From a virus (lineage: Duplodnaviria > Caudoviricetes): a stretch of DNA of 64,000 nucleotides. The translations under genes and the position numbers were made by a program. Shown piece after piece: positions 36,296-59,028 of this stretch. Where the stretch lies: IMG/VR virus record IMGVR_UViG_3300049321_000004, positions 7,620-71,619 of that record; one strand, given 5' to 3'. Positions within the stretch are counted from its first letter, which is position 1, and every line of letters begins with the position of its first letter. The notes beneath the pieces are model-generated. The model was not told where the DNA came from, made no database searches, and worked only from the letters and a program-made list of their open reading frames with translations.

Positions 36296-36358
36296 GGGAG
36301 CCCAGAGGGCCTTCGGTACGCGTGGAAGCTAAAATCGCGCTGGAACTGACGATGACGC
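36296..36358 (+). repeat. Dispersed hairpin-spacer-CTGACG element, copy 1
   Basis: GGGA GCCC AGA GGGC C TTCG-30 nt-CTGACGATGACGC. Confidence 0.75.
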
Positions 36359-36393
36359 TTTACATGCTAAATGAAAGCATTATGCTTGCTCAT

Positions 36394-36684
36394 ATGACAA
36401 CCTTTGAAACGAAGATTCGTGATCCCTACACCGTTTGGTACGGTCCTCACCCCTGTGAATTCTGCAATCGCAAGATTGTACGGTCTTCTCTGGAATCGGG
36501 CGGACTATCTCTGGAAGCGTCCGACCATGACCACCACTACCCAAACTACCGTTGGATGGAGCATGTCTGCTCAAAGGCTCCACCGCCCCAAGCTGCTGGA
36601 GGGATCGCCCGTTCCAAGAAAATGACCAAGGAGAGAAAAGTGGAGGTAGCCAAGAAGGCCGCTGCCGCACGGTGGAAGAAATGA
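36394..36684 (+). CDS. Zn-binding protein with basic AA..RW tail
   Basis: CEFC, HDHH, HVC; AGGIARSKKMTKERKVEVAKKAAAARWKK. Confidence 0.6.
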   Translation: MTTFETKIRDPYTVWYGPHPCEFCNRKIVRSSLESGGLSLEASDHDHHYPNYRWMEHVCSKAPPPQAAGGIARSKKMTKERKVEVAKKAAAARWKK

Positions 36685-36789
36685 ACGGATCGGGTGTAAA
36701 TCCCAACGACCTGACGATTTCAGCCCTCTGGTGTAAAAGCAGCACAGCAGCTTTTGAAGCTGTTAGACCTCGGGCAGTACGAGGGAGGG

Positions 36790-37276
36790 CTATTTCAAGA
36801 ACTGGGAGACGGCCAGCAAGATGACCGCCACACAGACAAGGGCGTGTCCGTTCCAGCCGGGAACCAGTGCCGCCACGGCAAACAGGAGGCTGAGGATAAC
36901 GAGGATTGTGAAAGGAGTGATGGCCATACCCCTACAATCGCCACAGCGCGCCTCTGTGGCTGTTTTCAGCACCATCCACACCCCTGACAGGGGAAAGTCG
37001 CTGCTGGAGCGAACTGTGGTGGCAAAGGAGAGGCTATGGGCGCAGGAACGAGAAGCTGAACAGGGCATCTGACTCCACAACGATGGTCTCGGAGCCGTAA
37101 ACTCTGTTGGTATCCTTGATGCCAAGCCATTCCGTTGGCTCGCTGTCTTCGGGATCGCCAAGCTCACGGTTCCACAAGCGCCACATGGGACGGCTGATGA
37201 TGGTCCTGACCTCCGTTTCCACGGAGCCACGGGCGGATAATTGCACTTGGTGGATAAGCTCACAAACGGTCTTCAT
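36790..37276 (-). CDS. Small membrane peptide (36790-36927) and hypothetical protein (37034-37276)
   Basis: Two-helix hydrophobic 45-mer; 80-aa ORF. Confidence 0.5.
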
Positions 37277-37280
37277 AGCG

Positions 37281-37345
37281 GGTAAAACGTCAGTCCAAGC
37301 AAGGTGGAGCGCAAGCGGAAACGGGTGGACGAAGGCATAGCTTCC
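37281..37345 (-). repeat. Dispersed element, copy 2
   Basis: GGAAGCTATGC C TTCG-36 nt-CTGACGTTTTACC, 4 nt before ATG 37276. Confidence 0.75.
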
Positions 37346-37388
37346 AAAGAAAAAGAGGGAGCAGAGGAAAGATCCCCCACTCCCTCTT
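37346..37388 (-). terminator. Rho-independent terminator
   Basis: AAGAGGGAG/CTCCCTCTT stem followed by TTTCTTT on minus strand. Confidence 0.65.
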
Positions 37389-37462
37389 CACTATGAAACA
37401 AGAAGCCCTGACAGACACCTATCTCCAAGGCAAGCCGAGGCTAACAGAGGGGAACAGGTGAG

Positions 37463-38827
37463 TCAAGGGGCCGGTTTAGTGGAGTTCTGGCCAGCGAGGA
37501 AGGCGGCTTTCCAAGCCATCTCACAGGCTTCGTACTTATCTGGGAGGATTCTAACGCTCCACCACCAATCACTAAACTTCCTCTGCGCGTCCTCCACTAC
37601 AGGAGCCGTGGGAAGGGGAGACAGCCGTTGCCAGTGGGTTGAGCCTTTGATCGGCTGATCCCAAGCCCCAACTCCAACGGTCGGCCCCCAGTTATTATTG
37701 TAGCACCAGCGCACGCACTTCACTGGCTGGCTCCTGAATGCCACCACTGAAACAGCATCCTGCTCTGTCGGCATCCTTTCCTTGCACGGCACCCATGCAT
37801 AGAGAGCACGGAGGGAGGTGAGAGCCTTCTCGGATTCAGTCAGCTTGGTGTAAAGCTCGTTTCTGTTTTCAAGCATCTCATTGAACCGTTCCTCCCAGCG
37901 CTTTGCATCCACCTCCTCGTCCTCGCGCTCCTTCACAGTAAGGTGAAGCTGAGCATTCAGCTTCCGGCACTCCTCACGCAATTCCTCTACCCGCCTGTTC
38001 GCAGAGTCTCGTTCCGAGAAAGCACGGCGCAGGATTTCATCCGTCATTTTCTCCGAGTCCACCCTCGGGCCCTGCTTCTCTTCCACAGGCACTTGTGAGG
38101 CAGGGGACTCCACGGGGAGAGGCAATGGGCGTCGCGTGCGACGATGGAACTGGCTTGGAATTGATATTGGATAATCGAGTTTCTCTCCGTCAAACGACTT
38201 CCAGTATTCGCCACAAAAACGGTATTCATCATCATTTGTGACACTTTCATCGAGTAATAATGGTCTCCATCCAGAAGGGAGCCATTCTTTCGTCCATCCA
38301 TCCGAACGATGCCAATGATAGCCAGCAGGCGGTGCTGGCAGCTTCCACTCAGCGGGAGGAGTGGAGACCTTTCCGTCACCAGCGCACCTGTCACAGATCG
38401 CGTGTTTCATGTTCATGTCAGACAAGGATAGGCATCCTGTGCCCCCGCACTTGGGGCACTCTTTCACGGGTGGAGCGTCAGTCCCCTGAGGTGGACTCTC
38501 GCTCACAGCGAGCCGAACGCCCTCCGGGCTACCCAAAGCGGACTCTACTACTAAAGCAGCAGGGAGTGGCATCCAGTGGGTGGGAGTCATGGGCGCAAAG
38601 TTTCCGCACCACACTTTCTGGTCAGGCCAGAAAGAGGTGATTTCTACCTGTAGGCCGAACAGCCCCAAGATGCGCTGTCCATCCTTCGGCGCGGACTCAA
38701 TATCCCGCCACCCCATGGACTCCAGCAAGGAGATGGCTGTTTCTAAGGACTCTTTGAAGCAGGGGTTGATTTCAACCTTCTCAAGGAAGCGAAGATCTGC
38801 GATGACAGAGATTGGTTCTGTGCTCAT
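37463..38827 (-). CDS. Mosaic multi-module protein with two DUF551-like modules, Zn finger and coiled coil
   Basis: WRDIESAPKDG..THWMPLP; CPKCGG..CDRC; WVPCKERMP..THWQRL. Confidence 0.75.
   Translation of the reverse strand: MSTEPISVIADLRFLEKVEINPCFKESLETAISLLESMGWRDIESAPKDGQRILGLFGLQVEITSFWPDQKVWCGNFAPMTPTHWMPLPAALVVESALGSPEGVRLAVSESPPQGTDAPPVKECPKCGGTGCLSLSDMNMKHAICDRCAGDGKVSTPPAEWKLPAPPAGYHWHRSDGWTKEWLPSGWRPLLLDESVTNDDEYRFCGEYWKSFDGEKLDYPISIPSQFHRRTRRPLPLPVESPASQVPVEEKQGPRVDSEKMTDEILRRAFSERDSANRRVEELREECRKLNAQLHLTVKEREDEEVDAKRWEERFNEMLENRNELYTKLTESEKALTSLRALYAWVPCKERMPTEQDAVSVVAFRSQPVKCVRWCYNNNWGPTVGVGAWDQPIKGSTHWQRLSPLPTAPVVEDAQRKFSDWWWSVRILPDKYEACEMAWKAAFLAGQNSTKPAP
38469..38533 (-). 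repeat. Dispersed element, copy 3 (intragenic, domain junction)
   Basis: GGTA GCCC GGA GGGC G TTCG-32 nt-CTGACGCTCCACC. Confidence 0.85.
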
Positions 38828-39126: not shown

Positions 39127-39187
39127 AGTGTGTGGAGGAATGATGAGTGAGATTGAAGAAAAAGCAAGAATTTTCACTGAAAAAGCA

Positions 39188-39215
39188 TTGACACCAATTT
39201 CAGGTCATGTAATAT
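39188..39215 (+). promoter_or_regulatory. Sigma70-like rightward early promoter
   Basis: TTGACA-16 nt-(TG)TAATAT, divergent from the MarR gene. Confidence 0.7.
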
Positions 39216-39223
39216 CCTTCAAT

Positions 39224-40307: not shown

Positions 40308-40321
40308 ACCCAGACACCGCT

Positions 40322-41312: not shown

Positions 41313-41345
41313 CACAAAACATCAAATACCACACCAGACATCTAT

Positions 41346-42638: not shown

Positions 42639-43238
42639 AATACGCTCCATCTCCGCCACGGTGGATCGCGGCCTAAGGTTCTCGGTAGTGACCGGGGAGA
42701 TTCCAGACGAGCACCGTGGCACCTTTCTTGCCCTGCAAGGAATCAACTGTGAGGCGATCATCTCCCCACATGAAAGGCCGGAGGGTGATGAGCCGGTGTT
42801 TGTGGATTCAGACATCAAAAAGAAATCGCCCTCAAAAAGGCTTCACGATGTGCTCTACGTTTTCTTCCAGCAGCGCAAGCAAGCGGGGAAGTTCAAAGGC
42901 ACGTTCGATACTTTTTATTCAGAGCAAATCGAGGTTCTGATAGATCGTGTGAAGTCGAAACTTGACCCAAAGAAACCGTCATGAACCCACCCATCACCAT
43001 GCCCGTCAGTTCCTGTGACGGGATAACTATCGCGGCCTCCCGAGCCTGTAAACTCGCCTCTAGCAGATCTACAAGCGTCTCCTTCACTGTCGCAGGCATC
43101 TCACTGGTGGCCACTCCAGACTCAGAGAGTGACCAACTTGTCAGCGACTGGTTCAAGATATTTCAGCAACAGAAGAAAGACGTGGAAGCGCGAAGCGCCT
43201 TCGTCCCCGTGCCAGACATAAAGACCCGTATGGGCTGA
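42601..43238 (+). CDS. Two hypothetical genes (42601-42984, 42981-43238)
   Basis: Coupled rightward ORFs. Confidence 0.6.
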
Positions 43239-43247
43239 CGCTCCACT
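43184..43247 (+). repeat. Dispersed element, copy 4 (its TGA is the stop of 42981-43238)
   Basis: GGAA GCGC GAA GCGC C TTCG-31 nt-CTGACGCTCCACT. Confidence 0.8.
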
Positions 43248-43269
43248 TCAAAAGAAAGGAATACTACCT

Positions 43270-44282
43270 ATGGGAATGTTTGATAACATCTACTACAAAG
43301 GGGAGGCGTACCAGTCCAAGGACATGGAGTGCGAACTCACATCCTACTATATTGAGGACGGTAAACTTTTTCGCCATCAATGGAGTCATAATGGAGAAAA
43401 ATGGGTAGACGATGGCAAGAAGGAAACTCAATACCACGGGTATCTAAATTTCTACCGCAGAGGTCCTGAGAAGTGGGAGGAGTACAATGCCAAGTTTGAT
43501 GAAGGAAATCTTATCACGGTAGAGGAGTCTCAAGAAAACTGGATATGAGACCATTCTGCCAGACATGCGCATCCCGTGGGCTTTCTTTGTGGGAAAACTG
43601 CTGCGTGTGTTCAGGCCACGTAACGCTTCCCTTCACGGTTCCCACCCTACCACAAACACCCCAACACACCTTCCGTGGGGCAGTAGTGAAGACAGTGGAG
43701 AAAGATGAAGGACCGAAGATAGGCCGAAAAGAGCGCGAAAGACTGGCTAGAATCTTCAACACAGGAACCAAATGAAACTATGAAAGACAAGTCTAAAGAC
43801 AAGTGGACGGTTACTACGAAGGAAAGTGAGAAGCCACCCATACCGGGCCTCACTGCCCCAACTAAGGTATTCACTCACTCCCTGAAGTACGACGGCAAGA
43901 AAGTCCATAGTCTCACAGGCTACAACGGACTCACCATCCTGACCGACACGGCCCGAGAATTTAACGCCCAAGGATACACACCGATCTTCAACAGCACCGT
44001 TCTTCTTCATGAACTTTCCCGCGCTCAACGCAAGAAGCTGGACGACCTCTGCGCCAAGTCCGTCCCGGACCTGTTTCCCGTGGAAAGTGAGGTGAAGCTG
44101 TGAGTGACTTGGACATGGTCCGAGACCTTCAGATTGTGTTGGGGCACGCCATTCTCTGCGGCCACGAGAGGGCTGAGTTGGAGCGATGCTTGGAGAAGGG
44201 TGGAATGACTGAGTATAAGTATCACTGTATGCTCAAGAATCACATCACGGTTATTCAGGAGCACCAGAAAAAACCGGCATGA
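43270..44282 (+). CDS. Four hypothetical genes (43270-43548, 43545-43775, 43780-44103, 44100-44282)
   Basis: Coupled rightward ORFs. Confidence 0.55.
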
Positions 44283-44929
44283 CCCCCGTACTGTTCAAAT
44301 GCTCCAAGTGCCGTGAGCACAAACCATCCACCGGCTTCCACAAGGACCGGAGAAAGGCGAGAGGACTGGCCAGCGCCTGCATGGACTGCCGCCGTGAACA
44401 GCAACGCCAGAACTCCGCCAGACAGCACCAAAAGCAGCGGGAGCGGTACTCCGCCATGATCTCCCAGCCAAAACCAACCCAGACTACCCCAAAGCCTCAA
44501 AAACCTCTCAGAACGCCCCAGAATGCAAAGAAACGGCCAACCAGGAAGGCCCGGCTCAAACCAGTCAGCGACCAGAAGCGGGACTGGAATGTGCTCTACC
44601 GTGAGAAGATCGACCGGGACACCCTGTTTGGGGTCTACTTCGACCTTGGCGAGAAGGATGGTGAACCCGTGGTGGTGCGCAAGATTGGCAGCAGGCTGGG
44701 ATGTGAGCGCCATCACAGTCTTGGAAGAGAGGGTTGCAAGATCCTGTTCTACGCCTTCTGCACAGTTAAACTTCACACCTTCACCCATGATAACGGCAAG
44801 AAATCCAGACGGTTAGGTCTACTTTTACCGGAATTTGAGGGACGAGAATCCAAGGAAAATCAACTGGACCCACTTGGGCTACTTCCTGAGTACCAAGCCT
44901 ACCTGAAACATCACAACCTGAATAAATAG
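44279..44929 (+). CDS. Zn-ribbon protein with HNH-like C-terminus
   Basis: CSKC..ACMDC; ERHH..HTFTHDN. Confidence 0.55.
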   Translation: MTPVLFKCSKCREHKPSTGFHKDRRKARGLASACMDCRREQQRQNSARQHQKQRERYSAMISQPKPTQTTPKPQKPLRTPQNAKKRPTRKARLKPVSDQKRDWNVLYREKIDRDTLFGVYFDLGEKDGEPVVVRKIGSRLGCERHHSLGREGCKILFYAFCTVKLHTFTHDNGKKSRRLGLLLPEFEGRESKENQLDPLGLLPEYQAYLKHHNLNK

Positions 44930-44942
44930 AGCAACAAACATC

Positions 44943-45272
44943 ATGAAACCAGAACTTGAACTTACACCACCTCCTCACAACGGATTCCGCATTGAGCACA
45001 TCATGCTCTCTGTGACCGTCGTTCACACCAACGAGATCATGCAGTACGACGACTCCTGCGCCTTCCTCATTGGAAAGGGGCTGAAGGAATACAATGGCGT
45101 CGTGAGTGTGCAGGCGGAGACGCTCTATAAGCACGGGAAGACGGATACGCATCCCGAAGGTTGCGACTGCGGAGAGTGTACTTATCACACGCGCATGGCT
45201 GCTATTCAGGTGGACCCATTCACGGGACACCTCATCGCGTCATCGTCAGTTCCACAAGGTAGCCAAGCCTGA
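44943..45272 (+). CDS. Hypothetical protein, paralog of 34771-35040
   Basis: EHIMLSVTV..IMQYDDSCAF..KGLKEY..GCDCGEC. Confidence 0.75.
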   Translation: MKPELELTPPPHNGFRIEHIMLSVTVVHTNEIMQYDDSCAFLIGKGLKEYNGVVSVQAETLYKHGKTDTHPEGCDCGECTYHTRMAAIQVDPFTGHLIASSSVPQGSQA

Positions 45273-45301
45273 GCGTGCCAACGAAGGCCCTTTGGGCTTC
45301 C
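45237..45301 (-). repeat. Dispersed element, copy 5 (antisense, gene junction)
   Basis: GGAA GCCC AAA GGGC C TTCG-32 nt-CTGACGATGACGC. Confidence 0.8.
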
Positions 45302-45328
45302 CAAAACTCTACCCAAAAAGAAACACCT

Positions 45329-46036
45329 ATGAACACACCACCCGACCCTAAGCCCTCCTCTGTTGACTGGGAGAGGCTCAAAGAGCTAAACAACCAGGCT
45401 TCACCATCTCCTTGGCATGTTGAACCACTTTCCCAGTTCGTCTCCAAGCGAGATGCTGAACTTATCGTGGCAATGAGACATTCTCTCCCATCCATCCTCG
45501 CGCTATCCGATGAACTGGAGAACCTGAAGTTCAAACTCGCTGCTGCCGACCGAGGGTTAGAGCTTCAGCAAAGGGAACTTAATGCATCCATTTCTTCTGG
45601 GGAATATAACCATAGGCACATTGCCGCCATTGAGTCTTCCCTGTCCGACGCTCTTGCCTCCCTCACCTCGGAGAAGTCCAGAGCAGACACGGCGGAGGAT
45701 GCCTTGAAGTGTTTTCAAGCAGCGGAGGTTGAGGGCTATTTTAGCGAGGAGTCAACGTTGGAGCATAAAGCGGACGTTTTCCAGCGTCGTGTAGCCATTG
45801 GCCTTGCAAGAATGTCCAGCGTTTTCACCACTCCCTCAGCCCCAGCCACGAGTGGGGTGGAAGCGGAGGCGTCTTTCTTTGCCTTCTACGATAAGGAGAG
45901 TGATGAAATAGAGCTTTGTTACACTCCCAGTTCACCGGACGGGAATGGTGTCTATGCAACCCCATATTATGCTGGAAAGTCACCATACGAGCCAGCGCCC
46001 ACCCCAGCCGTCAGGGAGCCCCTTTCGGGAAGCTAG
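45329..46036 (+). CDS. Ead/Ea22-like coiled-coil protein
   Basis: LKELNNQASPSPW..DAELIVAMR..LALSDELE pattern. Confidence 0.6.
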   Translation: MNTPPDPKPSSVDWERLKELNNQASPSPWHVEPLSQFVSKRDAELIVAMRHSLPSILALSDELENLKFKLAAADRGLELQQRELNASISSGEYNHRHIAAIESSLSDALASLTSEKSRADTAEDALKCFQAAEVEGYFSEESTLEHKADVFQRRVAIGLARMSSVFTTPSAPATSGVEAEASFFAFYDKESDEIELCYTPSSPDGNGVYATPYYAGKSPYEPAPTPAVREPLSGS

Positions 46037-46091
46037 CGCCTTCGATTACCTCACCCGTGAATAGCAACCTGCACTGGACTGACGTTTTACC
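46028..46091 (+). repeat. Dispersed element, copy 6 (gene junction)
   Basis: GGAAGCTAGCGC C TTCG-34 nt-CTGACGTTTTACC; 17-nt exact match to copy 2. Confidence 0.8.
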
Positions 46092-46170
46092 TGCCGTGAA
46101 CCCTGACCCTGATCTCCCTCCACTGGAATTCCTAGACGCAGAACCTGACCGCTGAAACCACTACAACACT

Positions 46171-47006
46171 ATGAACACATTGACTGAAGAGACACTGAAG
46201 GAACTGGAGCGACTCCATGAGAGGTGTTCCAACGATGGAGCCGACTACGGAGATTCGCCAAATGATGTGGCGATGCTTCAAGCGCTACAGGACCATCTTC
46301 CAGCCCTCATCTCCTCTGCAAGAGAAGCCTTGAGGTTGAGGGAGGCACTGGAGAAGATAGCCAATCTTTCATGGGGTTATGATGGAGATTGTGGAGCAGT
46401 GGCAATTGCCGACGAAGCTCTTGAAAAACCCGGAGGGTCTTCGAATCCGCTTCCCGCGAGTAGTGCCGCGCCAGAGACTGACGCTCCACCCCCTGAGAGG
46501 GATCAGGAGTGTGCTCACGGAGTGCGCTTCGGCAGGCCCTGTGAGGAATGCCACCAAGAGGTGCTCCTTCGCAAGGGGTTGGACGATCACTCCTGCAACT
46601 CAACTGGATGGGAGAAGCCATGAACCTCACGCCCCAACAGCTCCACATCATCCAGCATTCGCTCGGTCTGGACCAATACGGTCGCGGCAGAGAGTATCGC
46701 AATCACTTCGTGACAGGTCCGGGAAGTTCAGACTTTGCCGACTGCGAGTCCCTCGTAGATGGAGCCTGCATGACTGTCCGGCGCAACCTTCCACTAGCTG
46801 GAGGTGATGGAAGCAACTGCTACACCGTCACCGACTGGGGCAGGATGAAGATGCATGAGCAGAGCCCTGAACCTCCCAAGGTCCCCAAGTCAAAACTGAG
46901 GTACAAGGCATGGTTGGAGGTCTCCGATTGCTACCCTGACTGGGGATTTGGCGACTGGCTGAAGGCAAACCAGAAGAGGAAACGGACTGGACATTCCGCC
47001 GCATGA
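46171..47006 (+). CDS. Two hypothetical genes (46171-46623 mosaic; 46620-47006)
   Basis: Coupled ORFs; first contains element copy 7 before a CAHG..CEEC module. Confidence 0.6.
46424..46490 (+). repeat. Dispersed element, copy 7 (intragenic, domain junction)
   Basis: AAAA ACCC GGA GGGT C TTCG-34 nt-CTGACGCTCCACC. Confidence 0.85.
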
Positions 47007-47194: not shown

Positions 47195-47473
47195 ATGAAG
47201 AAGCCAACAACACCTCCCACGCTCCCATTCGACACCGACCGTTTCCGTGAGGCATGGCAAACATGGGGAGAGTTTCGCAGGCTGGAACTCAAGAAGCCGC
47301 TCGGACCCATCTCCACCAAAGAGCAACTGAAGTTCTTGGGTGAGATGAGTGAGGACATGGCACTGGCCTGTATGTCACAGAGCATGCGGAATAGCTGGCA
47401 GGGGCTTTTCCCTGTAGCCAAGGCCATCACGACCGCCAAGATTGTCCACTTTGAACAGGGAGGTGGGTTTTGA
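47195..47473 (+). CDS. Stand-alone C-terminal domain of a phage replication initiator
   Basis: FREAWQTW..RRLELKKP..QSMRNSWQGLF motif, coupled to DnaC-like gene. Confidence 0.65.
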   Translation: MKKPTTPPTLPFDTDRFREAWQTWGEFRRLELKKPLGPISTKEQLKFLGEMSEDMALACMSQSMRNSWQGLFPVAKAITTAKIVHFEQGGGF

Positions 47474-48186
47474 GCGTCACAGCCAACCTCCGAATCGTGA
47501 GGGAATACACGACCCAAGCCACCTGCAAGACCTGCAACCAACCGTTCGAGACCGAGGTGGCCGAGTTTGCTAATGGCAAGTCCCTGCAAGCCAACGTGTG
47601 CACGCCCTGCTACGAACGGCGGGAAGCGGCACAACCCCAAGCCAACCGGGAGGAGAAGCGCAAGCAGGAATGGGACAGGATGGTGGGTGGCTACTACCAC
47701 ATCTTCGACCCCAATCGCATCCCCAAGGAAATCAGAGGACACCTCGAAACGGTCTTCAACTGGCATCCTGACAGCCCCCGTGGTATCGGCTTCATCGGCA
47801 AGAGTCGCACCGGAAAGTCCCGTGTCCTCTTCGAACTGGGCCGAAGGCTGTACGTCCGTGGACAGGATGTGTACCCTACCAGCGGGATCGAGTTCGCGGA
47901 GAAGGTGGCAGGTCAGGTGGGGCACCGTGAGGACTTCGACGCCTACATGCAGCGGGTGAAGAACTGCAAGATCCTGCTCCTCGACGATGGCGATAAGATG
48001 TCGTTCACGCCCGCTGTAGAGGCCGCATACTACGGGATGCTGGAATACCGCAGGCGATTCCAAAGACCGATCCTGGCCAGCGTAAACAGCAACGGCAAGG
48101 CCATGGCAGCAGCAGCCAGTGACAACCGTGGAGAGCCCATTGTGAACCGGCTGCGGGACCTTTGTGAAATCATTGAACTGAAGTAA
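47470..48186 (+). CDS. DnaC/IstB-like AAA+ helicase loader
   Basis: CKTC..CTPC Zn site; Walker A GKSRTGKS; Walker B ILLLDD; RLRD sensor. Confidence 0.85.
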   Translation: MSVTANLRIVREYTTQATCKTCNQPFETEVAEFANGKSLQANVCTPCYERREAAQPQANREEKRKQEWDRMVGGYYHIFDPNRIPKEIRGHLETVFNWHPDSPRGIGFIGKSRTGKSRVLFELGRRLYVRGQDVYPTSGIEFAEKVAGQVGHREDFDAYMQRVKNCKILLLDDGDKMSFTPAVEAAYYGMLEYRRRFQRPILASVNSNGKAMAAAASDNRGEPIVNRLRDLCEIIELK

Positions 48187-48824: not shown

Positions 48825-49313
48825 CTACGGCTTGAACAGCCTCACGCCATTTACTGTGACAGCAGGAGGCTTATGTGGAGCACATCCACGCTTCCTCCGT
48901 TCCTTTACCCGCTCAATCTTCATCTTCGCCTGAAGCTTTCTCCATTGCTTTTTGGAGAGTGTCGTGGGTTTGGGTGGCCTTTTTGGCTTTCCCCGTGACT
49001 TCTTGGCCCGTTTTCTGGGGGCGGTCGTGACCTTTGGTGCCGGAAGATGCTCCTTGTCGTGACATGTGCGGCAGAGGATCTGAAGGTCGGTTACTTCAAC
49101 ATCATAGATACTGGAGTACCGAATGTGGTGAACATCAAGTTTACGGGTAGCGGGGCACTTGTGGCATTTCCTGCCGTGGTGTTCGAGGGCTCTGGACCGC
49201 AGTTCTCTCCAATGGCCCGACTTTAGATAGATGGTCCGGTACCAGTCACGCCGTGAGAGTCCGTGTTTCAGGAGTTCGGCATCAACAAGGGCTTCAGCTT
49301 CGCGTCTGGTCAT
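48825..49313 (-). CDS. HNH endonuclease with basic C-terminal tail
   Basis: YLKSGHWRELRSRAL..CHKC..LDVHH..Y..DLQILCRTCHDKEH. Confidence 0.9.
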   Translation of the reverse strand: MTRREAEALVDAELLKHGLSRRDWYRTIYLKSGHWRELRSRALEHHGRKCHKCPATRKLDVHHIRYSSIYDVEVTDLQILCRTCHDKEHLPAPKVTTAPRKRAKKSRGKPKRPPKPTTLSKKQWRKLQAKMKIERVKERRKRGCAPHKPPAVTVNGVRLFKP

Positions 49314-49319
49314 AAGGCG

Positions 49320-49765
49320 TGCTCACAGTCTACTCCCCGTATTCTCGGGGGATTCCCTCTGATGTTCAAAACCCCTCCCTCCTCCCCGCTGGAAAAACTC
49401 CAGACGTGGGGAGGTAGGCAAGAGCAACCCTTGGGCCTTTGTTTATCCTCGCTGCCCAACTGGAGAAGCCGTTACCAGCCGCCCCAGCCCCGAGCCGTCA
49501 CCGGCCAACGAGTCTCCTAGCTTGTTAAGCGCCGGACGCACTGGACATCCCTGCCCTGCACTATTGCGCTTTGTAACCTGCTGGCTTTTGGTGAGGCTGA
49601 TCCAGACAATAAGCAGCCCGCCTGCTCCACTTTCGTGGCTCCGTAGAGTTCGCAACAGGCGGGCAGTTCCCATGAGGTCCGAGCTTGCTTGCTCGGCTGG
49701 AAATGATTGTTCCGTGGTCCTCATGTGTTCTGACCTACCCGTTGCGAAACAGGCGCTTTGGTCAG
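49320..49765 (-). ncRNA. Candidate structured RNA directly upstream of the HNH gene
   Basis: Hairpins 49729-49766, 49671-49725, 49616-49664 (GAAA loop), 49335-49350; promoter-like TTGAAC-16-CATCAT at 49797-49770; no credible ORF. Confidence 0.5.
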
Positions 49766-49793
49766 ATGTATGATGCACGGAACCGAACAGTGT

Positions 49794-50197
49794 TCAAGCA
49801 GGAATTCTAGGGCGACTCAAAACCATGACGCGATACGCCAGCTTCTTCCGTCTCGCCTCCACCTCTCGGCACTGGTCGCATACCTTAAACTTGCCACGGG
49901 GTTTTCCGCAACGGTAGCAGTCACCCCGGCTGCGCCATTTGAGTCTTGATGCGTCTGTTCTCATGGGGTTTTCTTTGGCTTCGGTGGGAGCGGCATCCAG
50001 TGGGTAACGTACTCGCTTCTGAGCTGCTTTTCTCCATCTTGCCAATGCCACCAGCCACCATCCTTCTTGTAAGCCTCCGTGACTCGAAAAGAGTCAGAAA
50101 ACCCCATGGACATGGCGGAGGCGTAGATTTCAAGCCAGACATCCACTTTTCGGTGATCTCGGCCACGGTAAGATTTGATTGGTTTCCAAGGATTCAT
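49794..50197 (-). CDS. Zn-finger peptide (49794-49964) and DUF551-like protein (49961-50197)
   Basis: CYRCG..CDQC; WKPIKS..THWMPLPPKP. Confidence 0.65.
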
Positions 50198-50215
50198 AGG
50201 TGTACTTTCTTTTGA

Positions 50216-50281
50216 GGTGGAACGTCAGTCTCCTAACGCAGCTATTCTTCTATCGGGTGGACGAAGGCCCTCCGGGCCACC
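50216..50281 (-). repeat. Dispersed element, copy 8 (intergenic)
   Basis: GGTG GCCC GGA GGGC C TTCG-33 nt-CTGACGTTCCACC, 18 nt before ATG 50197. Confidence 0.85.
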
Positions 50282-50328
50282 CGATCACTTCCCGTGCAGG
50301 TTTCGAGAGATGGCGTGGTGGGTGGTGG

Positions 50329-52156
50329 TCATGGGGCGGTGAGTCTTCTTGTCTTTTCCAGAGTTTTTCTGTACTCAGCAGCATTACTCTCGGCCATTCG
50401 AAGTCTTTTCTCAAAACGTTCAATGAGACAAGCCTTGGCCTCCTCGAAGGTCGGGAAATAACTCACATCATCACTGGATCGGGCACAGCGTCGGGAGGAT
50501 TTTCCCGTCATCACAGTCACGGTCTTGTCCGAAAACGAGGCGACCTGAATAGGCTCAATAGAATCACCATACCCTCCCGCTTTGAACCAAGTGCCGACCG
50601 ACTCGGGGAAGTTATCCAAGGCGTGGACCTTGCAGTAGATGCCATCAGGCCCATGCCCCGGCGCTGACCCGCACTGAGTAGGCAATGAGCCGCGCCCTCC
50701 CGTCATAATGTGGCAGGCGCATCGCTTCGGGTCGTAGGGATTACCAGAAGGGAATCCAGCCCATTTCCCGTAACGATGGGTCTCGGCGTCTTCGAGAGAT
50801 GTGGGCTGGTAACTCATGATTGTGGAAATTTGGAATTAGCCCAGCACTTGGCCAGAATCAGGACGGTCATCACCCCAGAGGCCCAGATTGCCGCCGTAAA
50901 GCAGCCCTGCGAGGTTTTCAGATCACTCCCGGTACAACAGAGCACCGAGGACCAAACCCCGCTCAGAACGCCCAGAAACGCAAAGAACAGGGACACTGAG
51001 AGAATCCGGTGAATCCTCCCCGGCCAGTCCGTGAGGGTGCGATTCTTCAGCTTGCGGTGGTAGGCGATCAGATCCTCGGCTGATTTGAGGTGGTAGCAGC
51101 CGCCCGTGGATTGACTGCGGGTCAGCAGCTCGCGTGCAGGGGTCAAGAGATGGGAGCGTTTCATGCGGTGGAGTGGGTAGAGAACGGTGGGCATGGGGTT
51201 AGTATTGAGAGAGAAGGGATTTCACACGCTCTTGCTCTGCGGCCTCTTTTGCGGCCTTTTCGCTCTCACTCTGACTGGCTACGCGCTCCAGTTCATCACG
51301 GCGATCCTCAACCAGTCGGCGGAAGTCATCCTGCCACTTTCCGTTGTGAAGCCATCCGTAGGATTCGGTCCAGCCGGGATTTCCTCCAACTACCCCATAA
51401 ACCTCAACGCCCTCTTCCTTCGATGGGAAGCTGCCTTTTACCGTGACACCTTCCTTCAAGGCGTATATGTGGAAGGTGTAGCCTCGGGCATGGCTTGCAG
51501 AGTAGATGAACAACCGACCATATTGGCCAGTAGAAAACAAGGGTGCGAATTGTCGTGCTCCATTCATAGTCATTTCAGGTATTCGTAGTTTCAGTGAAGT
51601 TCCTCGGGCATTACTGGACGAAGGAGAGTTTGGAGAGGGGCGACTCGATCTTGTCCGATTGCTCGCGGTAAATCTGTCGGACTCCTTTGGATGGCTTCAT
51701 GGACGAGTCAGCAGCGGGCACGGAAACGGGCTTACAATGACCATCTTCATTTCCATGAGCGCAGCAATCATCGCAGGCGTATTCTTCTTGAGTGTCCCCC
51801 TCGTAAGCCCCAAAGCACGTAGCAGTCTGTCCGCAAGTGGCGCAAACGGGTGGAGCGTCAGTTCCTAAGGAATCCACTCGCTGAACGTGTAGGGGAAGGC
51901 CCTCCGGGCTAACCAAAACCTTCGGAATCCGGTCCAAGTAGTGATCGACAAGGAAGTCCCGGTCAGCCGAGGAAAGTGAGTCCCACACCGGAAACCCCAG
52001 TGATGGATTACGTTCTCTGAAGGAGTCATAGAAGGATTCAGTCTCCTCAAAGGGAGTACCGAGACCCAAAGAAGACTCCCTCCACGCCTTGAATTGCTTG
52101 GCGGCATGCTCGGTCAGCAGAGTAGTTATGGGTATAAAGTGGGATCTGGTGTCCAT
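50329..52156 (-). CDS. Four hypothetical genes (50329-50817, 50814-51194, 51199-51573, 51611-52156)
   Basis: Packed leftward ORFs; last is a two-module fusion joined at element copy 9. Confidence 0.55.
51849..51913 (-). repeat. Dispersed element, copy 9 (intragenic, domain junction)
   Basis: GTTA GCCC GGA GGGC C TTCC-32 nt-CTGACGCTCCACC. Confidence 0.85.
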
Positions 52157-52202: not shown

Positions 52203-52887
52203 TCAGAATTTCACAGGCTCCTTTTTCCAATTCTGGTAGAAGTCGCCCTCAGTGAGGAAATGGCGCTTTCCCCTGTAGAGGAAGAAGTACCAGCTATCGC
52301 CACGGCTGGCACGAGTGCCCTTGTGGACATTGACAGGGCGTCCCGTGGCTGGGTTGACGTAGCGTCCAAGGATGTGGCATCGGGTAAGTTTCATAGTGAA
52401 AGGTCAGGTCGCGGGATCACTCAGAACGGAAGAACAGAGCACGCTACAGAAGCCAGCCAGTCAAAGAACCCGGCCAGGATCAGCCAAGGAAGGTGAAGGG
52501 CCAGAACAAGGGAGACAGGAACGAGGTAAGAGGACATTGGAGGCTCAGGATTGAGGGTCAGGATTGAGGGTCAGCCGCCGTCTCGGTGTAACCGGCAGAG
52601 AGGAGGGCCTTGTGGCATTCCCCAGCTAGTCCGCCAGAGGTCATGTTAAATTCACGTCCGAACGTCTCCAGCGCGTCCATTGCTCGGACTAGCGCCTCTG
52701 CCATGGCAGGAGCAGCCCCAAAGAATCGGAAGTTTGCGGCAGCCTCAGTGTCATCTTGCACATACCAATTCGTTTTCTGGTAGTATTTTCCCGTGCCCTT
52801 CACCGTCTCAACGGTCAAGAGTCCAACTCGCTCCGGTCCGGGCGTCCAATTCTTCGTAATGGGTGGTGGTGTCAGCGATGTTTTCAT
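52203..52887 (-). CDS. Small early genes (52203-52394, a 38-aa membrane peptide, 52558-52887)
   Basis: Leftward ORFs with A/C-rich start contexts. Confidence 0.5.
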
Positions 52888-53038: not shown

Positions 53039-54203
53039 TCAGCCGTTTGCTTTCACCCATTCCTTAGCGTCCTCCATGTCCTGAAACTTAGGAGTGTCCA
53101 CGTTCACAAGGTCAGTTCCCGTGAACTTGCGGAAGGTGACGCCCATCATGCGACTCTGGCCGTTGTCATTCCAGTAGGATGGGGCAGCGACATAGAAAGC
53201 GCCGGATTTTCCCTTCCAGACACGGAAGGAGGACATTCTCTGACCAAAGAAACGGAGCGTTTCCCGGCTGAAGAAATAGGGTGAGGATTCACGGGTGGCG
53301 AAGGAGATGTCTGAGATGTTCATAGTAGGTAAAAAGTAGGTGTTTGAATGAAGGGTGGAACGTCAGAGTGCTGACTTAGCTATGGTCTTGAGCGTGGAGG
53401 AATGGCCTTGGGCCTTCCCTAACTGGTTCAGGCAGATGGAAGGGAAAGAGCGGCGCGGGCAGCTTCAATGCGCGCTTCCTTAACTCGGATGGTGTCCCAA
53501 ACATCGCATTCACGAAAGTCACGGCGGAGAGCTTTCAAGTCTTCAATCGCCACAGGCAGAAGGCTTTCCAGCGCCTCTGTCAGTGCTTGGATCTTGGCAA
53601 GGTGGGCAGCGTGGGGAACCGCTTCCTGCTTTAGAAATGCCTCAGCCCTTTGCAGGGTGCCCACGGCGTCATTTGGCGCAACGCTATTGAGGTGCCCACC
53701 GTCCGCAATCATCTTGCCGAGCCACATCGCGCAGCGTTCCACCACCTTCACGGCGTCCAGCTTGTCTTTTGTGGATCTCTCAACGGGTGGAACGTCAGCC
53801 GATGACGAATCCAAGCCGGACGCGGGAATGCGAACGGCCTTCGGCCCATCCAAAGGGACAGACTCAGCAGGGGAAGGGGAGAGGGATAGTTTCGATTTCA
53901 TAGTAGGGTAGTGGGGTAGGTTTCTGAGGTGGTGGGAGATTAGGGAAGGATGGCAATACATTCACCCGTGAGCTTTTCGTGAAGCCTGTGCATCATGTAG
54001 AACTTGTGATCGTTCTTTCCTTGCCTGCACTCTTCAGCGTGGACGAGGCTTTTAGCTAGAAACTCGTCTTTCTCAGCCTCGGTGACGTGGGAGGCGTAAT
54101 GGTCGTCCTCGCGGATGCCGTGAGCGTTTTCAATGTAGTCAGCACACACGGCTTCGCGGGCGGCTTGCAATTCTTCAGCGGAGTATTCAGAGAGGCGTTT
54201 CAT
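53039..54203 (-). CDS. Three early hypothetical genes (53039-53323, 53428-53901, 53940-54203)
   Basis: Leftward ORFs with CTACTATG/ACCTATG starts. Confidence 0.6.
53354..53418 (-). repeat. Dispersed element, copy 10 (intergenic)
   Basis: GGAA GGCC CAA GGCC A TTCC-32 nt-CTGACGTTCCACC. Confidence 0.85.
53786..53850 (-). repeat. Dispersed element, copy 11 (intragenic)
   Basis: GATG GGCC GAA GGCC G TTCG-32 nt-CTGACGTTCCACC. Confidence 0.85.
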
Positions 54204-54355: not shown

Positions 54356-54735
54356 ATGACAGCAACCAGCGAACCGAAACAGATGGGAAGACCCAGGAAG
54401 CACAAAGAGCCCTTAAAGAACTGCAACCTCAAGGTGCCTCAGTTACTTCTGGCCCGATTTGACATGATCGCAGCCCGTAAGGCGTGGAACCGCCCCCAGA
54501 CGCTTGAAGCTCTTGTGGACAAGTGGGAGGGAAAGGAATGAGCGCTCAAAGCCCATCTTGGACAGAGCTATTAAGTGTCATAGCGTTCATCATCGTCACA
54601 GTCATTAGTTTCATGGTCGCTAAGCAACGGGACGACCTGAAAGCGGAAGCGGTCCAGCGCGGTTTCGCTGAATGGGAGACTAATCCTCATGGCGTCTCTA
54701 CATGGAAGTGGAAAACGTCAGTCCCAAACGGCTAG
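54356..54735 (+). CDS. RHH/AT-hook-like regulator (54356-54541) and membrane peptide (54538-54735)
   Basis: MGRPRKHK..NLKVPQLLLARFD; one hydrophobic helix. Confidence 0.55.
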
Positions 54736-54776
54736 CTACCCGCACACTGCGCAATCGAAGGTCCTTCTGGACTATC
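54709..54776 (-). repeat. Dispersed element, copy 12 (antisense, gene 3' end)
   Basis: GATA GTCC AGAA GGAC C TTCG-34 nt-CTGACGTTTTCCA. Confidence 0.75.
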
Positions 54777-54810
54777 CGAAACAAGTCACAACCAACTCAA
54801 TAACAACACT

Positions 54811-55311: not shown

Positions 55312-56634
55312 GTGTGGAAGAGCTAAACAAGCTGTCAGACGAGGCGCTACGAGTTCTCTGCTCAGAGTTGTGTGGGTGGAGGATAAAAGAGATGCCCGCC
55401 GGGTCGCTTACTCCAAACGGCTGGTATGAACCGGGCGGTAAACTTGTCTGTCCAGAGCTTTACGGACCTAGTTTTCTCCCCAACTACTCCACAGACCTCA
55501 ACGCCATGCATGAGGCGGAGAAGACTCTTAGCGATGAGAATGAGAAGGGTGAAACAGAGCGGATGGAGTACCTCTACAATCTTGTCCGTGTAATTGCTGG
55601 ATATAAGCCAGGATCGTACATGCACTGGAGCGACCTTGGGGCGCATTCTGACTTTTCCATGGCAACCTCCCGCCAACGGTGCATCGCCTTCATTGCCACA
55701 AAGCAGGCGGAACGTCAGAGTGCAGACGAATCCACTCGCGGGCAAGGTAGGCGAAGGGCCTTCGGCCTACCCCAAGAAGTCAAACCAGAGCAAGCACCAT
55801 GAAGCCACACCATATTTCAAGACGCGACCTCAACCGACTGGAGACAGCTCTGGAAGACTGGCTGCACACCTACGCGACAGAGTTTTGCGACCGCCGGAGA
55901 GTCCACAGAGCTAGAAAGAGGATTTCGGACAATGGCAGCACCTTGGCCTACATCACAGACCACCTAGAACTAATCAGGCGCGTGAAGGCTTCTGGAACGG
56001 CTCCTATCACCCCTCAACCAGCAAAGACCTCCCAGAAGGGCTGAGAATGGCAGGAAACGGGGATTGGGAGCATCCTGTAACATTTCGACCGGACAAGCCT
56101 TCAAAACCCCAATAACACCTCTTTTTAACAGAAATAACCTTAGAATCGTCTTTCACCTCACAAACGGTCAATGTACCAGAAACAACCAAAGACCTCTGGA
56201 AACGGCCTTAAAACGCAAAAGAGCATATGAAGACACCCACGAACTTACAAGGCTACCAAGCAGCGGACAAGGTGGTGGAGGATCTCATGCGGTCCTCCCA
56301 TGAGGTGCGACCAAAGAAGCAGGGAAACCGAAAGAGCGCCGATTACCGCTCAGGATATGCAGACGGATTGCTTGCTGCACACTGTCTTCTCGTCATGGGT
56401 TCCCACCCCAAGCAGAATGAAAAGGAGATTTGGGAAATCCTGAAAGCCGACAACGCACAGAACAGCGCTGAGAGGGTGGACGAAGACCCTCCGGGTAAAC
56501 CAAAAGCCCTTGCCAGTCCCCAAGCTCTATGTCACCCTAAACGAAGCGACAGAGCCCAAAGCGTCAGTTCGGCGAAACGTTCCAAGTGCAAGTCAGGTAG
56601 ACGAAGGCGACAGCCAACCAGAAACTTCCCATAG
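55308..56634 (+). CDS. Hypothetical genes (55308-55802, 55799-56044, 56227-56634)
   Basis: 55308 has PNYSTDLNAMHEAEK..RQRCIAF pattern common in phage early genes. Confidence 0.6.
55706..55771 (-). repeat. Dispersed element, copy 13 (antisense, gene 3' end)
   Basis: GGTA GGCC GAA GGCC C TTCG-33 nt-CTGACGTTCCGCC. Confidence 0.85.
56474..56499 (-). repeat. Partial element (hairpin box only)
   Basis: ACCC GGA GGGT C TTCGTCCACCC, 21/22 nt identical to copy 8; no CTGACG box. Confidence 0.65.
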
Positions 56635-56666
56635 CAAGAACAGTAACACCTAAACAATACTGAATC

Positions 56667-57293
56667 ATGGTAGAGAGAAGTGAGGTTGGGATAAGTGAAG
56701 AGTCTAGCGAGACCTGTTCAGAGACAGGCTTTCAATCCCAAGAGTTGACTCTCCCTCGCGCGTGCGCCCGCGAAGGCGGTTGGTCACCCTCAGAAGCGAC
56801 TCTGCTCACTAACCCTGAGGCTATTGCATGGCCAGATGGACTTAAGAAGTGGCATCACAAGTTCCTTAACTCCCTCATGGTGAGGCCAGTCGTAGCATTT
56901 GCATGCAGATCCTGCAACATCTCAACGGCCATTGCCTTCCGGGACAAGGGAGAGAATGAAACCTTCGCAAAGTGTTGGGACCAAGCACTTAACGCAGGAT
57001 GGGAGAGAGTGGAAGAGGCTGCTCACGTCCGCGCTGTTGACGGCGTAGAGAAGGCTATCTTCGGCAAAGATGGGCAAGTCATTGGTACTGAGGTCAAATA
57101 CTCGGATGGACTGGCTGAACTGCTCCTGAAGGCCAACAAGCCAGAGAAGTACCGGGAGAACAGCGCCCCACAAGTGACTGTCAACGTGCTCAACTGGAGC
57201 AACGGTGGAGCAGAACTACCTCAGCCTGTGGAGGATAAGAGAGAAGTGATTGAGATGAGCAGTGAGGATTGTGAACTGTTGGGTGATGAGTGA
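56667..57293 (+). CDS. terS: Terminase small subunit
   Basis: FAKCWDQAL..VEEAAHVRAVDGVEK..KYSDGLAELLLKANKPEKYRE. Confidence 0.85.
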   Translation: MVERSEVGISEESSETCSETGFQSQELTLPRACAREGGWSPSEATLLTNPEAIAWPDGLKKWHHKFLNSLMVRPVVAFACRSCNISTAIAFRDKGENETFAKCWDQALNAGWERVEEAAHVRAVDGVEKAIFGKDGQVIGTEVKYSDGLAELLLKANKPEKYRENSAPQVTVNVLNWSNGGAELPQPVEDKREVIEMSSEDCELLGDE

Positions 57294-57809
57294 GTAGGGT
57301 ATAACTTGATACAATAGCCAAATCCTTAAATAGGATTCGTTCATCCTCAACCACTTACACCTAGATGGTGTATCACACCGCTCCAGTCTCAACAGCGGAG
57401 TCAGGCAAGGATCGCCCAATCCACACAGATGGCCTCCAAGGGTGGCATGCTGTAACTGGCTGTAGTACAGCGGAGTATCACCAAGACGCAGCAGCGTGGC
57501 TGTGTGTGCGTAGGAGAGGGTATGAGGTGATGTGAAGGGCAGATGGGACGGCACCGGTCCCCCGACCAACCCAAGCCGGGACCGCAGTGCTACCCAACAT
57601 GCTTGCCGAAATTTCTCTGTACTTCCCTCACTTTGAACTGCATTCTCATTATTAAGAGACGGTTTGCCTTTCCTTTTGCTCCAGAAATTTTCCTGTAGTT
57701 CTGGGACTTGCCTCTCCTTTGCCCTGTAGATGGCCTAGGAGACGTCTTACTTGTTGGTTGGGCTCTTACTGAACTCTTGAGTCCTTCTCTCTTCCTAGGG
57801 TGTTTCTGT
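57294..57809. other. Non-coding region after terS, candidate packaging-initiation/terminus region
   Basis: No ORF; G-rich tract then pyrimidine-rich tract; inverted repeat CGGTCCC/GGGACCG 57555-57584. Confidence 0.35.
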
Positions 57810-57810
57810 G

Positions 57811-57875
57811 GAAAACCCGGAGGGTCTTCGAATACCTCAGGGGTACTGGCTACGTGCAGGAACTGACGCTTGGCG
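57811..57875 (+). repeat. Dispersed element, copy 14 (intergenic)
   Basis: GAAA ACCC GGA GGGT C TTCG-32 nt-CTGACGCTTGGCG; 22-nt exact match to copy 7. Confidence 0.8.
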
Positions 57876-57888
57876 TGCTCAGGACCTG

Positions 57889-58110
57889 TTAAAGCCCTCG
57901 TTCTGAGCAGTTATGGAGATACTTCCACAGGCTGGTAAGGCTGTACGGGTCGAACTTTCCCCTCTCACGATCCTTCTGGCACGCCTCGGAAGACTTTCCA
58001 GCCGCAGCGGCGATGTCGTGAATAGAGTATCGGAAGGGTTTTTTCGGGGTTTTCCCGCCTTTCCGTCCACGTTGGCGTTGCTGTTCTCGTTCAAAATCCG
58101 TCATCGGCAT
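57889..58110 (-). CDS. Small HTH protein with KGG motif
   Basis: QRGRKGGK; YSIHDIAAAAGKS. Confidence 0.6.
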   Translation of the reverse strand: MPMTDFEREQQRQRGRKGGKTPKKPFRYSIHDIAAAAGKSSEACQKDRERGKFDPYSLTSLWKYLHNCSERGL

Positions 58111-58189
58111 GCCAAATCGTACCTATTTTGTCGGAGAAATCCAGCTTTATTGTTGACTTGTCGGGGATGGCCGATAGTATGGACGACAT

Positions 58190-59028
58190 ATGGAACAAGA
58201 AAAAGTCACCAAATGTGGAGGTTGTGGGAAGACAATACCGTACGAGCGGAATACAAAGCGCGCATGCTCTGTTCGTTGTCAGAAGCGTATTCAGAGAGGT
58301 CGGAAAGGACCTTCGGATGCTGTGGCCCAAAAACTACTGGACGACCTTGATCGCAGCCTCAAGGCCGCCACAGCTACCCCGCTGCTGGACATGATCCGTC
58401 GAGAGGTGGGTCACAAAACATTCGAACAGGCTACCTTGAAGCTGGGAACCTTCTGCATTGAGGACATCCGACGTTCCCAAAACCAAATTAAGTACCTAGA
58501 TGATATGGTGAGGAAAGCAACCTACTTGGTCGGCAAGACTATTACTCGGGTTACCGTAGACCACGCTGAACAGCCTGATCCCTTTGGTACCCTATACAAC
58601 ATCAACCTCCACTTTTCATGAAACCCAAACCCGTCTCCCACGTCACTGCCTTGAAGCAGAAGGTGATTGAGCGGATCAAAGCCAAGTCTGGGAAGGCCCA
58701 AGGCCATTCGACTACCTCCAGCGCGGGTAGTGACCTTCCTGTGCCTGACGTTCCGCCCGCTGGGTGGATCAGGAATCCTGAGTACGACAAACTTGGCCCC
58801 AGCGCTGATGTGAAGTTTGTCTTCCATCCCAAGGTCCTTCAGGTTGTGAAGGCTCCCGTCGAAAACCACGGTTCCGTAAACGACTTGGCCCGCTCTGTCA
58901 TCTTCTCACGGGTGAAGCAGCCTGTTTCCACCGATCTCTCGAAATCCCAACTTCACTCCAGCAAGGGTCATGAAGCTGAGCGGCAGGGAAAAGCAACTTC
59001 TCAGGATTCTGGCACGGGGCCTGAGTAA
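58190..59028 (+). CDS. Zn-finger protein (58190-58621) and hypothetical protein (58618-59028)
   Basis: CGGCG..CSVRC; promoter TTGACT-16-TAGTAT upstream. Confidence 0.6.
58691..58757 (+). repeat. Dispersed element, copy 15 (intragenic)
   Basis: GGAA GGCC CAA GGCC A TTCG-34 nt-CTGACGTTCCGCC; 20-nt exact match to copy 10. Confidence 0.85.

Follow-up and report, generated by a model that had tools for sequence, protein, structure and literature searches.

The stretch of viral DNA analysed here, referred to as the window throughout, spans 64 kb (positions 7,620 to 71,619) of the single 71,619-bp contig IMGVR_UViG_3300049321_000004 and belongs to a tailed-phage genome with a G+C content of 54%. 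Large rightward structural genes fill window 1-30 kb, among them the gene of a protein of 2500 amino acids (aa), and the gene for the terminase large subunit (TerL) starts at 62705. Very few of the window's proteins found a match in Pfam or PHROG: a DnaC-like loader (47470-48186), a TerS-like protein (56667-57293), two endonuclease VII/HNH-like proteins (44279-44929 and 48825-49313) and a DUF551/zinc-finger protein make up these matches. This study concerns a short element that is repeated among the small genes of this genome. An earlier note on the same DNA had listed 15 copies and a partial one, each composed of a mini-hairpin, a variable middle and a box beginning CTGACG. I found that these copies form one family with a 78-nt architecture and a covarying hairpin, that most of them span the space between the end of one gene and the start of the next, and that they may represent promoter and leader cassettes which also serve as crossover points.

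Detection of the element copies

A covariance model (R1) was built from an alignment (A3) of the 15 window copies and six copies from related phages. Scanning the window with R1 returned all 15 copies on the strands originally reported, with scores of 42-73 bits, and beyond these a degenerate copy at 56552-56627 (-; 28.2 bits), which is the partial copy of the earlier note, and a 5' half-copy at 56444-56509 (-; 19.2 bits) that contains the hairpin and the TTCG block without the box. A truncated remnant at about 52395-52425 (-) was picked up by pairwise alignment; it retains a box-like sequence just before an ATG at 52394, and a full copy occupies this site in the related contig L126. A strong copy in another relative, L125, which had been outside the training set, was also recovered (64 bits). 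No R1 match fell within window 1-36000. The element is thus confined to the small-gene, non-structural region, and its reported absence from the 30-kb virion module held up in the scan.

The specificity of the model was assessed on unrelated viral contigs from IMG/VR (721 kb in total), all chosen beforehand for a TTCG...CTGACG-box pattern and therefore a deliberately unfavourable control. The top R1 score in this set was 23.5 bits. An Rfam cmscan of the whole window at E values up to 1 reported only two tRNAs and one chance microRNA match and no family corresponding to the element, the hammerhead, twister, pistol, hatchet and tRNA-like models included, and GenBank phages likewise produced no megablast match. 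In IMG/VR, a loosely defined pattern yielded single chance matches only, a stricter one yielded zero matches, and the strict pattern was met in JGI metagenome contigs by two chance matches only.

Architecture, folding and reading frames

The 78-nt consensus runs from a TTTGGG[T/A]AG block through a hairpin of four GC pairs with a purine-rich loop of three bases, a single additional base, the invariant TTC(G), a YACC-like block and a T[A/G]G-N3-C-N-T block to the box, in which CTGACG is invariant and is followed by one invariant T and an ...ACCC end. The parts named in the earlier note are all present, and the conserved sequence begins earlier (TTTGGG[T/A]AG) and ends later (...ACCC) than stated there. 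From TTC to T[A/G]G the spacing is 20-21 nt in 18 of 23 copies, from T[A/G]G to CTGACG it is 15-17 nt, and from TTC to CTGACG mostly 36-38 nt, so that block spacing is constant within 1-2 nt across 78 bp. What had been described as a variable middle of 30-36 nt consequently varies in sequence but hardly in length. Fixed spacing together with the invariant TTC, CTGACG and single T would suit a signal that is read by a protein, and the unit has approximately the size of an RNA polymerase footprint.

Folding was evaluated on an enlarged alignment (A6) of 38 copies at E <=1e-5, 36 of them distinct. The compensatory changes reported for the hairpin were borne out: three of its pairs change on both sides (20 cells; 36 distinct copies), and none of 500 shuffles reached the observed covariation score or paired fraction. 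The hairpin was 81% paired, compared with 19-50% in slid controls; a second hairpin class retains only the outer GAAGC/GC-TTC pairs. The hairpin segment alone departed from shuffled sequence (z -1.0, p 3e-6; mean minimum free energy of the segment about -6 kcal/mol), while the two downstream segments folded like shuffles (z -0.09 and -0.24). The second of these, from the mid block to the box (p 0.33), is where the earlier note had drawn a second hairpin pairing with the box, which is accordingly not supported. Whole-element folds gave z scores of -0.4 for the sense and -0.5 for the antisense strand. Four longer helices (5' block with block 3, block 3 with mid block, mid block with box, and 5' block with box) were tried and rejected, being 57-68% paired without covariation. 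The mini-hairpin is the only structured part of the element. Its mismatches, 8 G-T and 12 A-C, do not show which strand folds.

The consensus carries stop codons in all three frames: TAG at positions 12-14, TAG at 47-49, and a TGA inside the box at 64-66. Both TAGs are polymorphic (AAG or TGG), and about half of the copies are therefore open in each of two frames. Of the 36 copies, 18 were open in one of these frames and 17 in the other, where composition predicts 16.4 +/- 2.9. A number of copies are located in open frames and would there encode Pro/Ser/Gly/Ala-rich peptides, and the 5' half is read in differing frames among copies. At least two copies, at window 51846-51922 and L125 10013-10089, must be translated through, since the zinc-finger module downstream of them lacks its own start codon. 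Translation across the element is tolerated and not selected.

In the phage genome, complementary targets for the middles of the copies did not exceed chance, and a search for an anti-box RNA elsewhere in the window gave nothing convincing. Three further candidates were considered and discarded. A translational bypass of the T4 gene 60 type was prompted by GGA-TAG plus a hairpin in a few copies, but the upstream frames do not fit; a mini-intron found no support; and a tRNA-like or T-loop structure was backed by neither ARAGORN nor Rfam.

Placement and orientation

Most copies extend from the stop codon of the upstream gene, often located within the 5' block or immediately ahead of it, and end 1-57 nt short of the following start codon; copies at the head of operons are 300-450 nt away, measured from box to start. 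By my own count, about 27 of 34 distinct copies (~80%) are co-oriented with neighbouring genes. The exceptions are window 45234-45310 and 55703-55780, the two degenerate copies near 56500, L125 3209-3288 and L135 4334-4408, and these are still located at gene junctions.

There are four independent cases in which a copy heads a gene block in a divergent gap and is aimed into that block, where no upstream transcript is expected: L125 4312-4389, L135 3454-3530, window 54706-54785 (together with L137 1949-2026) and window 36287-36361. The last of these is copy 1 (+; 42.1 bits), which has a variant box and heads a small rightward gene group, while 54706-54785 is copy 12 (-; 57.1 bits), pointing at a leftward gene block. 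Copy 2 (37278-37354, -; 47.3 bits), a member of the short hairpin class, lies directly downstream of an intrinsic-terminator-like hairpin (37352-37389, -; 17-pair stem and T-run) and occupies the gap between it and the next ATG, 4 nt past its box. Such head-of-block and post-terminator placements fit an initiation signal, and they would be a misfit for a processing site, a translational-coupling device or a terminator.

A GTG start, at which PHROG and Pfam matches begin, follows 1 nt past the box of copy 3 (38466-38542, -; 68 bits). The open reading frame (ORF) upstream of copy 4 (43175-43250, +; 47.7 bits) stops at the TGA within the box, and a 253-aa ORF terminates within copy 6 (46019-46094, +; 62.1 bits; short hairpin class). 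Copy 8 (50213-50290, -; 73.2 bits) and copy 10 (53351-53427, -; 58 bits) are intergenic; the former has an orthologue at L126 2526-2603, and at the latter L137 keeps the flanks with a different interior. Copy 11 is at 53783-53859 (-; 59.7 bits), and copy 14 (57802-57878, +; 59.1 bits), which has a divergent box tail, follows a gap of 510 nt without a called ORF. Copy 7 (46415-46493, +; 64.5 bits) and copy 15 (58682-58760, +; 68.2 bits) lie within open frames, and copy 9 (51846-51922, -; 69.5 bits) is in a 181-aa ORF, directly 5' of the zinc-finger module. Copy 5 (45234-45310, -; 58.7 bits) is antisense to the flanking + ORFs as judged by coding scores and sits at a gene junction, and copy 13 (55703-55780, -; 72.7 bits) is antisense in the 3' end of a + ORF.

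Shine-Dalgarno (SD) sequences were not found ahead of start codons anywhere in the window (for example at 3935, 15177, 17832, 31070 and 53323). The leaders before ATG codons are instead G-poor and C/A-rich, with recurrent ACCTAC/CCACC and CTGA[T/C]TCC motifs, indicative of a host whose translation initiation is non-SD. TAnnTTTG, the -7 motif of Bacteroidota promoters, was rarer than expected in the window (8 versus 15).

Relatives and mosaicism at element edges

Relatives L125 and L126/L127 were reached by a protein search with the ORF holding copy 51846-51922, through the common zinc-finger module, and L134, L135 and L137 through the TerL cluster at >=90% identity. R1 found five hits in L125, two in L126/L127, two in L134, six in L135 and eight in L137, the eighth of which was weak (16 bits). 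Altogether, 21 additional copies were counted in the five related contigs. More distant TerL relatives gave a different picture: the element was not found in L129 (54% TerL identity) or L130 (42%), and L131 (35%), a contig of a Parabacteroides metagenome-assembled genome (MAG; CAZHNZ010000149.1), held no copy and a single weak hit of 15 bits. L131 was the sole GTDB genome match for the TerL family; the TerL relatives are otherwise metagenomic contigs of 24-75 kb. An R1 scan of the loci of TerS-like relatives found no element, and an IMG/VR search with the DnaC-like protein found no relatives. With copies only in close relatives, and none in distant TerL relatives or pattern scans, the family is real and limited to a narrow clade.

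The weak L131 hit (252-324) contains a hairpin, a CCACCC block and CTGACGTT, and could be a chance match or distantly related to the element. A different kind of conserved sequence was noted at window 60337-60369, where 33 nt at a stop/start overlap are 100% identical in L134 and L135 within diverged surrounding DNA; the same stretch begins a long 99%-identical match to L137, and its counterpart in L134 is directly followed by an element copy (L134 1034-1111). Possibly this is another type of conserved junction.

Comparison by blastn showed patchy homology of L126 and L137 to the window, with ends that coincide with element edges. Such breakpoints were located at window 50277/50193, 53354/53414, 54703, 55778 and 56504, and at L126 713. 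The homology at 50277/50193 comprises the element and the leader up to the ATG, and the genes downstream differ. L137 homology starts at the end of the box of copy 12 and resumes at 55778, at the edge of copy 13. In L137, a 138-aa gene is inserted immediately past a box and has a degenerate, box-like remnant at its other end; in the orthologous element at this insertion the flanks are 94-100% identical and the interior differs. A unit of box plus zinc-finger module recurs in different gene contexts at window 51865-51722 and L125 10070-10213 with 78% identity. The module itself, about 40 aa of the form CxxC...CxxCC...H, is inserted in a gene together with an element copy (compare window 51611-52156 (-), L125 10001-10747 and L126 1316-1753). 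The L126 orthologue of the gene bearing it has a different middle and a near-identical C-terminal tail.

Roughly counted, about 12 of 44 breakpoints fall within 25 nt of an element edge where about 6 would be expected, a figure that is only suggestive and is inflated because the elements are themselves conserved islands. Neither a clean empty site nor a target-site duplication was found. The joints probably arose by recombination, and this bears on the earlier note's suggestion that the elements are joints for module shuffling by a folded single strand in the manner of attC or REP sites. Breakpoints at the edges and the element plus zinc-finger unit in two contexts speak for the joints; the single-stranded mechanism finds no backing, as the whole element does not fold and neither an integrase nor a RAYT protein was seen.

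Other features of the window

The 2500-aa protein of the virion module (21839-29341, +) is Ala/Glu/Lys-rich and resembles an internal or ejection protein; it matched no sequence in Pfam, PHROG or PDB and lacks the DxDGD polymerase motif. A protein of ~2000 aa adjoins TerL in the relative L130. Two neighbouring tRNA genes at 32401-32552 (-) read Leu(TAA) and Arg(TCT). Phages often carry readers of A/T-ending codons when the G+C content of the host is higher, and these two tRNAs are of that type. The 510 nt between the TerS-like gene and copy 14 (57293-57802) contain no convincing ORF, and other long non-coding stretches flagged in the earlier note are 35400-36044, 49313-49797 and 5330-6064.

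Proposed role of the element

The explanation that I favour, and to which I would give an even chance of being correct, is that the element is a hairpin plus predicted promoter/leader cassette which doubles as a crossover point, similar to the promoter-early stem-loop (PeSL) cassettes of T4-like phages. Experiments have established PeSLs as promoters, as terminators and as sites of crossover (Arbiol et al. 2010, PMC2839356; Comeau et al. 2014, PMC4122927), and the existence of tested cassettes of a like kind counts for this reading. So do the fixed block spacing, the copies at operon heads and behind a terminator, the co-orientation with genes and the span from stop to start, the restriction to the non-structural region and the homology breaks at element edges. 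In the proposed scheme, the short GC hairpin just past the end of the upstream gene would attenuate or end upstream transcripts, or would stabilise their 3' ends. The TTCG and YACC-like block, the T[A/G]G-N3-C-N-T block and the CTGACG box would together make up the promoter and early-transcribed leader of the downstream gene or genes; the box would lie at the start of the leader, placing the strongest conservation around +4 to +17 of the transcript. The blocks would be read by the RNA polymerase of the non-SD host, possibly together with a phage factor. Finally, the conserved blocks of 78-bp copies in co-infecting relatives could serve as short patches of homology at which recombination adds, removes or swaps downstream cassettes. 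Both the promoter activity and the role of the hairpin as attenuator or 3'-end stabiliser are predictions from the architecture and placement of the copies.

A number of observations weigh against this reading. A consensus scan found no sigma-70-type -35/-10 pair inside any copy, the blocks at 21-nt and 16-nt spacing being unlike TTGACA/TATAAT, and the element does not contain the Bacteroidota-type promoter motif either, whose -7 part is under-represented window-wide. With only four strong pairs and no T-run behind it, the hairpin is not a canonical terminator. A promoter would not usually be most strongly conserved at what are presumed to be positions +4 to +17 of its transcript. Some 20% of the copies run antisense to the genes around them, one of these, 55703-55780, being among the top-scoring, and ribosomes must pass through no fewer than two copies (window 51846-51922 and L125 10013-10089). 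By the rough count, joints are enriched only ~2-fold at element edges, and part of this is expected of conserved islands, so that the figure is no more than suggestive.

Among the alternatives, a signal at the RNA level is unlikely, yet it has the most in its favour. Here, hairpin and box would be recognised in the transcript by a protein of the phage or host, as a translational operator, a site of endonuclease processing or a stability determinant, and would control early genes post-transcriptionally, much as has been proposed for the start-associated sequences (SAS) and extended SAS (ESAS) of Cluster K mycobacteriophages or for the T4 RegA/RegB targets. The sense orientation of ~80% of copies, the proximity of the 3' end of the element to start codons, the compensatory changes that keep the hairpin paired, and the resemblance of the box tail to the CCACC/ACCTAC-like leaders before most start codons are all consistent with this. 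Nevertheless, the distance from box to start is not fixed and ranges from 1 to >300 nt, head-of-operon and antisense copies would be hard to explain, only the 4-pair hairpin is structured, and the balance of G-T and A-C mismatches gives no sign of folding on the sense strand.

Less probable is an array of DNA operators, in which the blocks would be bound by a phage regulator in a stoperator-like manner and would silence or time early-region transcription according to their orientation. The box is asymmetric and invariant, many copies are scattered over short intergenic spaces, their orientation tracks transcription, which is the defining stoperator pattern (PMC9283540), and small proteins of helix-turn-helix (HTH) type are encoded nearby (LuxR/GerE-like relatives and a faint HTH_3). 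However, what is conserved is no lone 13-mer but a 78-bp composite of four blocks with a covarying hairpin, the covariation favours a folded single strand over a duplex site, and no cognate repressor or lysogeny module was identified beyond the weak HTH-type matches. The earlier note's related suggestion of polar regulatory sites (stoperators, or sites such as lambda nut or HK022 put) is viable in so far as ~80% of copies follow transcription, but placement at operon heads and behind a terminator points to a promoter-type signal rather than to nut or put.

Two readings that involve a dedicated recombination machinery are improbable. In the first, which I would put slightly below the operator array, hairpin and CTGACG box would be the site of a dedicated phage nuclease or recombinase, or of a factor that redirects RNA polymerase, driving cassette exchange between co-infecting genomes; this would amount to an integron-like system in a lytic phage of an uncultured non-SD host. 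The second, doubtful to a somewhat greater degree, is a mobile or site-specific recombination element, either a miniature inverted-repeat transposable element (MITE) or an attC/REP-like site of folded single-stranded DNA, with a recombinase or nuclease of its own that would move the downstream cassette. Short inverted-repeat-like ends (GGGT[A/G]G ... C[C/T]ACCC, 68% complementary), the presence of both orientations, half-copies and a truncated remnant, joints at element edges, and several HNH or GIY-YIG-like genes in the region are in agreement with such an element. On the other hand, conservation is block-wise with unrelated interiors, unlike the uniform copies of a recently spread MITE, the end complementarity shows no covariation, and the whole element does not fold; target-site duplications or clean empty sites were not found, nor was an integrase, transposase or RAYT among the proteins scanned. 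Finally, a translated inter-domain linker, suggested by copies in frame between protein modules with Pro/Ser/Gly/Ala-rich peptides, or small guide RNAs, which the earlier note had proposed and which would fit the differing middles, can be set aside as very improbable, as the 5' half changes frame among copies, the consensus has stops in all frames and openness is that expected of composition, while the middles are fixed in length, unstructured and without phage targets and no anti-box sequence was found.

This phage comes from a lineage with almost no annotation, and few of its proteins match Pfam or PHROGs. If the PeSL-like promoter cassette proves true, the three blocks at fixed spacing would offer an initial way into how transcription is signalled in this phage group and its host. 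The element would also provide a ready marker for the boundaries of accessory-gene cassettes, and the PeSL principle of regulatory cassettes as recombination linkers would be extended to an unrelated lineage with signals unlike sigma-70 promoters. Should a phage factor be what recognises the element, a new type of regulon or of cassette-exchange system would thereby be defined.

Comparison with known systems

Integron attC sites and the repetitive extragenic palindromic sequences and bacterial interspersed mosaic elements (REP/BIME) share with the element the conserved ends and variable interior, the location at cassette or gene boundaries, and a GTAG-like tetranucleotide beside the hairpin. 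They differ in that the element has no overall imperfect palindrome (fold z about 0), that no integrase or RAYT was found, and that its interior is fixed in length.

The promoters of the N4 virion RNA polymerase are similar in their short GC stem, purine-rich 3-nt loop and GAAG/CTTC flanks. The P2 hairpin as read from the N4 genome is GAAGC-GGA-GCTTC on the template strand, whereas the purine loop is on the coding strand in ~80% of copies here, so that N4 logic would give antisense transcripts. A virion RNA polymerase was not detectable, given the lack of a DxDGD motif and of PDB or Pfam matches in the 2500-aa protein. The opposite loop orientation of most copies and the missing polymerase signature in the giant virion protein speak against an N4-type hairpin promoter.

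L5-type (Cluster A) mycobacteriophages carry more than 20 stoperators, which are asymmetric 13-mers in short intergenic spaces with an orientation tied to transcription (PMC9283540). The element is likewise asymmetric and follows transcription in about 27 of 34 distinct copies. Stoperators, however, belong to temperate phages and are lone 13-mers to which a known monomeric immunity repressor binds, compared with a 78-bp unit with a hairpin in a genome in which no repressor or lysogeny genes were identified.

The SAS of Cluster K mycobacteriophages are 13-nt asymmetric boxes upstream of a subset of genes, with 11-19 per genome, often following an inverted repeat (in ESAS), and are kept across related phages before different gene families (Pope et al. 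2011, PMC3203893). A short asymmetric box upstream of a subset of genes and conserved in related phages is also what is seen here. The sequences are unrelated, though, and SAS are kept closely spaced to the start codon and take in the ribosome-binding site, while the box here is 1 to several hundred nt away; ESAS repeats are 17 bp with a variable spacer as opposed to a 4-pair hairpin at fixed spacing.

The closest counterpart appears to be the PeSL. Differences are apparent, as the element has no sigma-70-like -35/-10 pair and no U-tract terminator, its stem has only four strong pairs, it has an invariant CTGACG box and a third conserved block, and a part of its copies run antisense or within ORFs. 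Its phage is of an unrelated lineage with a non-SD host, and promoter or terminator activity and mini-circles would here be predictions. The earlier note had not recognised it as a described element, which holds for the sequence family, as Rfam has no match, but not for the kind of element, which is already known from PeSL (PMC2839356, PMC4122927) and from SAS/ESAS (PMC3203893). Like PeSLs, the copies are repeated composite units that reach from an upstream stop to just before a downstream start, carry a GC-rich stem-loop of the GGGC/GCCC type, are concentrated among small non-essential or accessory genes, and bound the insertions, deletions and replacements between close relatives, here seen as joints at element edges.

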